Source: Schmidtea polychroa
Lineage: Eukaryota
Length of the DNA stretch: 64,000 nucleotides
NCBI GenBank assembly: GCA_044892525.1
Contig: CM097885.1
Coordinates: 13,766,001 to 13,830,000, forward strand
Direction: 5' to 3'
Position numbers and translations under genes: made by a program
Notes under the pieces: generated by a model
What the model was told of the DNA's origin: nothing
Database searches by the model: none
What the model saw: the letters and a program-made list of their open reading frames with translations, nothing else
Shown here: piece by piece, positions 46,465 to 48,922 of the stretch
Position numbering within the stretch: position 1 is the first letter of the stretch
How the letters are laid out: the number at the start of each line of letters is the position of its first letter

Positions 46465-47091
46465 ATAATAATAATAATAATAATAATAATAATAATAATA
46501 ATAATAATAATAACAATAATAACAATAATAATAATAATAATAATAATAATAATAATAATAGTAATAATAATAATAATAATAATAATAATAATTATAATAA
46601 TAATTATAAAAACATACCCATTTCTTCATAAAAAAGTTTTTTTCATTAAATTGATTTCATAAATCATATAATTTGTTTTCATAAAAACTGGTTTCAGAAA
46701 AAAAAAATAAAAATTAATCATAAGAAATTTAATTATAAAAAATTTAAATCATAAAAATAATAATTACCTCATTTGAAAAATATATACAAAGTATTGATAA
46801 CATCTAACCAATCAGAATTGGATATTATCGATTCTTTGTTCTCTGAATATGACTCATCGATGAGTCATTGTTACTAACTGAGTAATTTCTACTCACATAA
46901 AGACATGCAATACAAGTGCAATACAAGTGCATGAAATGTCTTGATGTAAGTAATAATACTAATAATAATAATACTAATAATAATAATAATATTTATGACA
47001 ATACTAGTAATAATAATAATTAAATTAATAATATTTATGCCAATAATAATAATAATATATCAGACAAAGATTATTTAAATTAATACATTTA

Positions 47092-47592
47092 TTAAACAAT
47101 GAAATAATTGAAAATTAACAATGGCCATTTAAATATTGATGTACTCATAATTGCTGCCATCTTGTTTGAAATTGGTAACGTTGAATTGGTTTTCAAATTT
47201 TCTATCGATTCTTTTATTGTTCGAATTTCGAATATTATTAAATCAATCTTTCTTAACAAATGATCATGTTTCTTATCAATAATTTTCATATTCTTTATAT
47301 TTTCAACAATTGAGTTATTGAAAACCTCAATATGATCAATAAATTTAAATTTTATATTTTGTATATATTCAAAAGATAGGTCATAGCTGTTTTCTAAATT
47401 CTCCAATCTTTGAGATATTCTTTTTCCTGGATGCTTTGCCCATTTTGGTTTGTCAAGAATATATAAAATATCCATCAACTTGGCGGTATTTGGACAAATA
47501 CATATTGATTTATTAAAGGACTCCACCGTTATTGTTGTATTGTGTGAGCACACATTCCTTATAATAATTAGCAATAGAAATATAGTTTTCAT
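47092..47592 (-). CDS. Secreted or GPI-anchored coiled-coil protein
   Basis: Signal peptide MKTIFLLLIIIRNVCS, CICP, N-glycosylation sequons, heptad region, C-terminal hydrophobic tail IFKWPLLIFNYFIV. Confidence 0.7.
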   Translation of the reverse strand: MKTIFLLLIIIRNVCSHNTTITVESFNKSICICPNTAKLMDILYILDKPKWAKHPGKRISQRLENLENSYDLSFEYIQNIKFKFIDHIEVFNNSIVENIKNMKIIDKKHDHLLRKIDLIIFEIRTIKESIENLKTNSTLPISNKMAAIMSTSIFKWPLLIFNYFIV

Positions 47593-47701
47593 GTTGTATC
47601 AAATCTATTATGTTTTACATTTATAGTCTATCAACCAATCAGAATCATATTACACACACAGTAGTATAAATAAGACAGTATATTAAAAATTATTGTAAAA
47701 A
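47593..47701. promoter_or_regulatory. Compact bidirectional promoter
   Basis: TATAAA on minus strand (47620-47625), CCAAT (47635) and TATAAA on plus strand (47665-47670) between two divergent ATGs. Confidence 0.6.
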
Positions 47702-48004
47702 ATGTCTAAATTTATTGAAAACGTTCTAAATGGACTAGTCACAGCGAATATAGTCGACAGCCTCAATTTCCTGGTCAATCGGACCGAACAAATTATTGAA
47801 GGCAACCATATCGACTACCAGAGCATGCTTGATATGGATTGTCTTGAATCAAAGAAGAATTATTTTAACAATATATTTCACTGTCTCTGCGATGAAGACA
47901 TGAAATGGACAAGAATTATTGTAGGGTTCACCTACATGAAGATAATCATTGCGAAAAGCCAACATGACTCAGAACATTATCATCAATGGTCTTTAGAAGT
48001 AAAT
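47702..48004 (+). CDS. Bcl-2-like protein (BH1-like motif), running into a (TTA)n tract
   Basis: YFNNIFHCLCDEDMKWTRIIVGFTY resembles the BH1 consensus FxxVxxxLFxDGxNWGRIVAxFxF; helical protein. Confidence 0.55.
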
Positions 48005-48152
48005 TTATTATTATTATTATTATTATTATTATTATTATTATTATTATTATTATTATTATTATTATTATTATTATTATTATTATTATTATTATTATTATTA
48101 TTATTATTATTATTATTATTATTATTATTATTATTATTATTATTATTATTAT
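48005..48152. repeat. (TTA)n microsatellite
   Basis: Direct reading. Confidence 0.98.
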
Positions 48153-48259
48153 ATATTATTATTAATATTACTTATTATTATAATTATTATTCAGTAGCGA
48201 CATACAATAAATTTTGGTTTACCAAAAAAAGAAGTCTGTTCTAAAAATTAGAGTCGTGT

Positions 48260-48922
48260 GATGAGTCTTTTTTTTAAAAATAAATTATTGGTCTTTGTTC
48301 AAAAAAGTCATCGATGAGTCATACTGGGGGGGGGGGGAGTATGCAAAAAAAAGAAAAAAGAAACCCCCTATCTAAACTATGAGTCATCGATGAGTCTTTG
48401 TCTATATATCTTTGTTTAAATGTCTTTGTTTAAATGTATTTATTTAATTATTTGTTTACATGTCTTTGTTTAAATATTTGTTTAAATATATTTATTTAAA
48501 TATTTGTTTAAATGTATTTATTTAAATTTTTGTTTTAATGTCTTTGTTTAAATATTAAATATGTCTTTGTTTAAAAAATGATGAGTCATATATACTTTGA
48601 TAATGAGTCAGTTAGCTTTGTTCCAAAAATGATATGACCTTCTTACTAAAATTAGAATGACCTTGATGAGTCATCTTCTTTGTTTAAAAATGATGAGTCA
48701 TCGGGCAGGATCAAAGGAGATGAGTCATATGTACTTTATTGATGAGTCATCGTCTTTGTTTAAAAATGATGAGTCATCGGATCTGGGCAAAAAGTGATTT
48801 GGATCAATGATCGGATCAAAAAATGATGAGTCGCCGATGAGTCATCGATTAGTCATATGTCTTTGTTTTGCGCTGAGTCATGGGGGGTATATGAAGAGTC
48901 ATGGAGCACACTTCCCTCTACT
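48260..48922. promoter_or_regulatory. Dense AP-1 (TGAGTCA) / HMG-box (CTTTGTT) / Fox-like (TGTTTA) motif array
   Basis: 11 perfect TGAGTCA counted (48315-48880) and about 10 CTTTGT sites. Confidence 0.7.

Follow-up and report, generated by a model that had tools for sequence, protein, structure and literature searches.

A probable internally deleted Polinton/Maverick copy in Schmidtea polychroa and the divergent Bcl-2-like and ORFan gene pair of its family

Within 64,000 nucleotides (nt) of the AT-rich Schmidtea polychroa genome (contig CM097885.1 of assembly GCA_044892525.1, forward-strand positions 13,766,001 to 13,830,000; hereafter the window, whose own numbering is used), two open reading frames (ORFs) lie head to head only 109 bp apart, one on the minus strand (47092-47592) and one starting with an ATG at 47702 on the plus strand. 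The gap between them contains TATA boxes on both strands (47620-47626, minus; 47665-47672, plus) and a CCAAT box (47635-47639). What this gene pair is, and to what it belongs, is the question raised by the locus. An initial annotation, which had reported the same frames and promoter boxes correctly, interpreted 46800-48922 as a compact cassette at the end of a second, unrecognised mobile element or endogenous virus. The best overall explanation is very likely that of a deleted Polinton copy, whose two genes are the terminal accessory module of its family. A Polinton-type element with a Bcl-2 gene and a probable surface protein was therefore rightly anticipated, but it is not of an unrecognised kind, since it belongs to a high-copy Polinton family.

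The gene pair is multicopy, all 40 genomic matches scored being at least 98% identical, with the window as one of them (2179 first-look candidates). The abrupt end noticed earlier at 48922 is the family terminus, the 18-nt sequence of which occurs exactly 336 times genome-wide (165 forward and 171 reverse; control 0). Four of five copies traced rightwards closed at 16.4-16.8 kb with exact 6-bp target duplications, and the fifth, which closed at a greater distance, had an exact 6-bp duplication too. Among all eight two-ended places with this terminus the duplication was exact in six, carried one mismatch in one and was absent from one; in related families it was found in 4/4. The suggested 6-bp duplications are thus present in the longer copies, while that of the window copy is unreadable because its left end is gone. 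The inverted arms reach about 1.4-1.5 kb (four two-ended copies). Long terminal inverted repeats with 5'-AG..CT-3' ends and a 6-bp target-site duplication are hallmarks of Polintons/Mavericks.

The proposed linkage to Polinton genes was also borne out by the longer copies. These carry a pPolB gene (a 1302-amino-acid ORF, E 2e-88 to the PF03175-type pPolB found elsewhere in the window, and absent from the window copy), although a Pfam search gave no direct PF03175 match for this ORF. They also carry an integrase with a chromo domain (rve PF00665, E 5e-7, 30.3 bits, below the 32.6 cut-off; E 1.3e-5 in subfamily B), an A32-like packaging ATPase (PF04665, 28.6 bits, cut-off 22.8) and adenain, the adenovirus-like cysteine protease (PF00770, 31.8 bits, cut-off 21.3). 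An ORF of about 407 amino acids is a candidate capsid gene, with a weak match (23% identity, BLASTP E 3e-4) to the PF21738-positive capsid of another Polinton. With these ends, duplications and replication and packaging genes, the family is Polinton/Maverick, and the window stretch is almost certainly an internally deleted copy of this high-copy, 16-17 kb family. Its parts are as follows.

40955-41139, plus strand: remnant of the left terminal arm, an inner piece of the outer arm and an AAT run (inverted match to 48076-48258, 91% over 185 nt)
41140-46464, plus strand: piece of an unrelated long terminal repeat (LTR) retroelement within the AAT run of the arm (LTR pair 98.7% identical over 1232 nt including the AAT run; TG..CA ends)
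46465-47057, plus strand: inner part of the left arm, with an AAT run, a CCAAT at 46808 and an AP-1 pair at 46850 and 46861 (inverted counterpart at the right end in 3 of 4 two-ended copies, 90-91% identity)
47092-47592, minus strand: ORF166, 166 amino acids (ORF call, genomic matches and substitution ratios)
47593-47701, no strand: bidirectional promoter of 109 bp, with the TATA and CCAAT boxes given above
47702-47998, plus strand: exon 1 of the Bcl-2-like gene, 99 codons, with predicted helices 1-6 and a BH1-like KWTR (PF00452)
47999-48189, plus strand: splice donor and (TAT)49 run, the deletion junction at which the TAT run of the Bcl-2 intron meets that of the right arm
48190-48922, minus strand: outer part of the right terminal arm, with 11 TGACTCA sites and ACAAAG and AAGGTCA motifs, ending at the family terminus

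About 14 kb, including exon 2 of the Bcl-2 gene, is deleted from the window copy. Of the 53 distinct places read, 50 continue from exon 1 into a short intron and exon 2; the remaining three are the window and two unparsed places. The junction of the intron TAT run with the right-arm TAT run was seen in the window only (1 of 51 parsed places). Slippage or recombination between the two (TAT)n runs would most likely account for the deletion. The supposed compact cassette is therefore one deleted copy, in which the far right arm was brought next to the genes, and it does not begin at 46800, since the arm pieces at 46465-47057 and 40955-41139 extend it to the left. The 40955-41139 remnant lacks the terminus together with some 660 nt of outer arm rich in AP-1 sites, and no family terminus was found to the left of it in the remaining window. 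The plus-strand ORF of 180 amino acids (47702-48244) that had been taken as the Bcl-2-like gene is exon 1 read on through the (TAT)49 run into poly-leucine; the homology holds, but the ORF as such is not a real gene. As its sequence stands, the window copy is unable to make a whole Bcl-2 protein and ORF166 is the only frame still open there; the copy itself is debris. A 3-kb foldback element was also considered, and was dropped once other copies continued into exon 2.

In the LTR piece, the LTRs occupy 41140-42222 and 45381-46464, and a duplicated AAT run with about 20 nt of Polinton arm lies inside it at 42223-42559. The order is LTR, AAT run and arm piece, integrase tail with two or three accessory ORFs, and LTR, which would fit a tandem duplication and then recombination between LTRs. 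An rve_3 match (42672-43760) was under the cut-off, and the ORFs at 43675-44415 (with a hydrophobic segment) and 44473-45135 received no Pfam name. Directly left of the arm remnant, at 40150-40900, is a frameshifted phosphorylase-superfamily (MTAP-like) pseudogene (PF01048, E 1e-5).

The AP-1 motifs noted around the genes are genuinely enriched. The 64-kb window contains 22 TGA[CG]TCA sites against 5.44 +/- 2.72 in 100 shuffles, none of which reached 22, and 14 of the 22 are within 46800-48922. They do not form a separate array beside the genes, the array being the terminal arm: the dense array adjoins the genes because the 14-kb deletion placed the right arm there, and sites are found on both sides because two element arms flank the pair. 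The arm sites go back to the duplication of short units and cannot be counted as independent. Outer arms of subfamily A have 8-11 AP-1 sites (five arms). Subfamily B arms have different termini and the same three motifs (TGACTCA, ACAAAG and AAGGTCA) in another order, with 2-4 AP-1 sites near the end. The motif names (AP-1/bZIP, Sox/TCF-like and nuclear-receptor-like) follow remembered consensus sequences. Reuse of a motif set across unrelated arm sequences suggests a function, though not necessarily wound induction. In the promoter itself, both TATA boxes and the CCAAT box are preserved in 5/5 aligned copies of subfamilies A and B; in the copy L092, where ORF166 was not found, the CCAAT and the TATA box on the Bcl-2 side are preserved and the minus-strand box is altered.

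Two uses of the arm motifs can be proposed, both rather doubtful. The arm may be a dedicated AP-1 stress or wound enhancer that turns on both genes after injury. This would fit the density of the motif, with 11 TGACTCA sites in the last 733 nt before 48922 against 0.1 expected (maximum 2 in 200 shuffles), and its scarcity in the element interior (1 site in 7200 nt and 2 in 6400 nt), as well as the recurrence of the three motifs in new orders in subfamily B and the use of repeated TTACGTAA-type bZIP palindromes instead in family D. Two papers point the same way: planarian Polintons are SMEDWI-2 targets and are de-silenced during differentiation (PMC8532177), and jun D, a planarian AP-1 factor, acts downstream of TAK1 in infection (PMC4993586). 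The duplicated units argue against it, as do the arms of family C, which has a Bcl-2 gene and 0 AP-1 sites in both arms, and the motifs, being matches to a remembered consensus, are candidate sites only. No better placed is the alternative that the motifs serve replication or integration rather than transcription of the gene pair, as origin helpers or as sites for an element-encoded protein. Host factors act as origin helpers at the inverted terminal repeats of adenovirus, and the array begins 43 nt inside the terminus and is present in mirror image at either end of the element, including the end which has no nearby Bcl-2 gene in longer copies. Against such a role, the motifs match host transcription-factor consensus sequences, and they vary among families whose core genes are closely related.

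The Bcl-2 assignment is carried by the longer copies, which score 34.5 bits against PF00452 (cut-off 31.4) even when translated through the intron, while exon 1 of the window alone gives 17.8 bits (E 0.005). In other copies exon 2 encodes BH2 and a hydrophobic C-terminal tail, and is 58-59 amino acids long in 46/50. The intron (GT..AG, 44-64 nt) has an identical position in 7/7 copies from four subfamilies, and in many copies its length is not a multiple of three. Its removal is indicated by two sequencing runs of one study (X1 and X2, taken to be RNA by guess), in which single contigs join the end of exon 1 directly to sequence that matches exon 2 of L145, a copy from a sister subfamily; contigs of runs X3 and X5 continue past exon 1 into intron-like sequence. 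For the window stretch itself, no run recorded as RNA was listed as containing it, which counts neither for nor against its expression. With 150 of 909 candidates scored, the 15 top PF00452 rows of the genome all belong to host-type genes, and no intronless member of these subfamilies is among them. Because no such copy was among these rows, a spliced transcript is the simplest source of the X1 and X2 contigs. One X2 contig has an A run soon after an AATAAA downstream of the Bcl-2 stop, a single weak hint that was not counted. For exon 1, synonymous sites were saturated in three of four pairs, and the ratio of nonsynonymous to synonymous substitution rates (dN/dS) was 0.17 in the fourth; the Bcl-2 gene is under purifying selection. 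A structure model of exon 1 has six helices and a predicted local distance difference test (pLDDT) score of 63.5. Its ten best Foldseek matches in the PDB were all Bcl-xL (best E 0.7, none at E 0.001), and a homologue search with exon 1 returned two near-copies only. An anti-apoptotic action of the Polinton Bcl-2 is somewhat more likely than not.

ORF166, the divergent partner, is a real ORFan under selection. All of its 150 scored genomic matches fall into two groups, 89 at 93-100% identity (four with a stop) and 61 at 83-84% (no stops), and dN/dS was 0.21-0.31 in 3/3 between-subfamily pairs (Fisher p <= 3e-4). Among 1.84 billion representatives there was one match, itself a family member; Pfam gave only weak coiled-coil matches (Fib_alpha, E 0.009), and no neighbour was found in the Atlas. 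The structure model is poor (pLDDT 42). The frame has a hydrophobic, signal-peptide-like N-terminus, four N-glycosylation sequons, a long predicted helix/heptad region (about 55-132) and a hydrophobic C-terminal tail, and is predicted to encode a secreted or surface-anchored coiled-coil protein, in which the tail would be a glycosylphosphatidylinositol signal or an anchor.

How the parts might work together can be sketched for the longer copies. Host RNA polymerase II would transcribe to both sides from the 109-bp CCAAT/TATA promoter, as an early unit, assisted by the arm-repeated bZIP-type (AP-1), Sox/TCF-like and nuclear-receptor-like motifs, and the tail-anchored Bcl-2, once spliced, would protect the cell from dying while the element is copied. 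Adenovirus E1B-19K keeps the cell alive during viral replication in the same manner. The full scheme is an unlikely one as it stands. In it, the arms of this young family would be an enhancer of shuffled AP-1, Sox/TCF and nuclear-receptor motifs, tuned to cells that are wounded or differentiating. The enhancer would turn on the gene pair as an early unit, a captured Bcl-2 with a recently gained intron together with an orphan surface protein, and the element would thereby replicate in cells that it prevents from dying. If it were true, 300-plus arms would have spread some 3,000 AP-1 sites across the genome of a regenerating animal.

The Polinton Bcl-2 is probably of host origin, from the lineage of the paralogue at L062. 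In a comparison with nine host-type and three Burro-type rows, this single-copy gene was the best non-Polinton match, with 60.8 bits (27% identity, pairwise E 8e-17); the next host gene reached 28.5 bits and Burro-type copies 21.9. L062 has host-type genes as neighbours and is 89% identical to the named Schmidtea mediterranea Bcl2-like protein P0003 (UniRef C9WPR4, ACW83059.1). A second Polinton family, C, has an intronless Bcl-2 that is 40% identical to L062. An origin of the gene in the Burro giant LTR retroelements, or its sharing with them, is very unlikely, even though Burro carries a BCL2-like motif (described in part of PMC6431247), many long-ORF Bcl-2 matches exist in this genome, and an approximately unbiased (AU) test leaves a Polinton and Burro grouping unrejected (p 0.16). 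The pairwise score to Burro-type copies is far below that to L062, and the Burro rows form a separate 100/99 branch. An early suspicion that the window element itself was a Burro LTR was rejected by the two-ended Polinton copies and by the Bcl-2 scores and tree. Host-type Bcl-2 genes with the canonical NWGR also occur as a segmental array of seven near-identical members (L051-L057; C4, 89.95-90.83 Mb).

With regard to the window copy, it is highly improbable that the short form is a non-autonomous family of its own, consisting of arms and accessory genes and mobilised in trans. Short two-ended derivatives do occur (L094, 1.8 kb; L095, 3.0 kb), but the window junction is confined to one place, the left terminus is lost, and the right arm is 84-93% identical to its nearest other arms, with nothing above 93%. 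Least credible is a host gene pair, which copy number and linkage rule out, or an assembly artefact at microsatellites, for although the junction lies inside a 147-nt TAT run of a kind error-prone for assemblies, a mis-join would alter the shape of this copy alone and not the nature of the family.

Several results weigh against the account of a deleted Polinton copy with a captured, spliced Bcl-2 gene and AP-1-bearing arms. For the window copy, 4 substitutions over 66 nt separate its two arm pieces, where 5/5 two-ended copies have 0-1. Because they diverge more than in fresh copies and the target duplication is unreadable, it may be an older copy or may combine two insertions as a chimera. For the family, a capsid fold of the 407-amino-acid ORF received an HHalign probability of 0.7%, and PDB profile and Pfam searches gave no match. 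For the arms, besides the AP-1-free family C, there is one AP-1 site in the arm of family D, and only 2 in the single subfamily B arm counted. For the Bcl-2 gene, the splicing evidence comes from a sister subfamily and not from that of the window. In addition, BH1 reads KWTR in the element instead of the canonical NWGR, the glycine of which is required for BH3 binding by mammalian Bcl-2 and Bcl-xL. The host paralogue likewise lacks it (RWSR) and still passes PF00452 at 43.3 bits; the missing glycine lowers the claim of canonical groove binding, not that of homology. For the origin, all Polinton Bcl-2s join L062 in the tree with a support of only 84/87, and neither a single Polinton clade (p 0.24) nor the grouping with Burro is rejected by AU tests, so that one capture and two captures are both compatible with these tests.

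Some further observations concern the Polintons of this genome. A TBP-like gene of 145 amino acids (L035:4591-5028, minus strand; PF00352, E 3e-16; dN/dS 0.15-0.16) is present in every Polinton family of the clade examined, including B, C and D, and has 69 relatives of 96-223 amino acids in public assemblies. Additional TAT-type runs at L035:6850-7270, inside the integrase gene, and L036:2369-2460, just ahead of pPolB, are probably small introns like that of Bcl-2. A mosaic Polinton (L096/L097) combines a subfamily A-type terminus with a subfamily B-type interior and has an exact 6-bp duplication, which suggests arm exchange between subfamilies, and Polintons were found within or beside other Polintons at L016, L040/L041, L042 and L037. 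In the window itself, 1052-8555 (with L147) is a different Polinton interrupted by a gypsy-type element, with pPolB at 4053-7493 (PF03175) and a PF21738 capsid upstream in L147. An intronless gene at 13878-15182 encodes 434 amino acids with a signal peptide, leucine-rich repeats and a transmembrane segment. The regions 15804-19279 and 50732-57304 hold a DDE_1 fragment, a hAT transposase ORF of 612 amino acids, a gypsy element and piggyBac-like fragments.

The family offers a tractable Polinton case. It likely took a host cell-death regulator, which has stayed under selection across several subfamilies and acquired an intron, and whose partner gene encodes a predicted surface-type ORFan protein. 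Planarian RNA interference (RNAi) and wound time courses make a possible viral-style manipulation of host cell survival by animal Polintons testable. The cellular planarian protein (P0003, probably the RNAi-lethal bcl2-1, with its counterpart L062) shares with the Polinton protein a W-[ST]-R BH1 and a WxxxNGGW BH2. The host frame stops right after BH2, a position at which cellular Bcl-2 genes have an intron; both Polinton lineages continue there, and in one of them an intron lies 9 codons before BH2 instead. Lysis after bcl2-1 RNAi, jun D and Smed-Bcl2 as a pro-survival factor are described in PMC4993586 and PMC7586133.

Viral Bcl-2 mimics such as adenovirus E1B-19K and BHRF1 of Epstein-Barr virus are alike in having a short Bcl-2 fold, which for the Polinton protein is a predicted one, a hydrophobic tail, a position near a linear genome end and a host-type TATA promoter, with no sequence link found to them, a PDB search giving only fish Bax (E 0.72). 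Burro giant gypsy-like LTR elements are likewise planarian mobile elements with a BCL2-like domain, but they are retroelements that carry it inside a polyprotein and on its own tree branch; part of PMC6431247 covers both this domain and Polinton features. Planarian Polintons are described as under piRNA (PIWI-interacting RNA) control and de-silenced in differentiation in PMC8532177; PMC11410931 has no occurrence of polinton, maverick or AP-1. A literature search, with Repbase entries and subscription papers beyond its reach, found no prior report of this planarian module.

Bcl-2 cargo in Polinton-type elements is, however, already known. Starrett et al. 2021 (PMC8502044, section 3.2) report homologues of Bcl2 and IAP from adintoviruses, with three 'Bcl2' labels in the supplement maps and TBP-like genes labelled in figure legends for related MELD viruses; the part of the supplement text searched has no Schmidtea, Dugesia or Girardia entry. 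The family shares with Polintons/Mavericks and animal adintoviruses a pPolB, an rve integrase, an FtsK/A32-type ATPase, adenain, long inverted arms and a length of 16-17 kb. It differs from the adintoviruses in that its Bcl-2 gene contains a short spliceosomal intron, has a likely host donor within this genome and is paired with a divergent ORFan.

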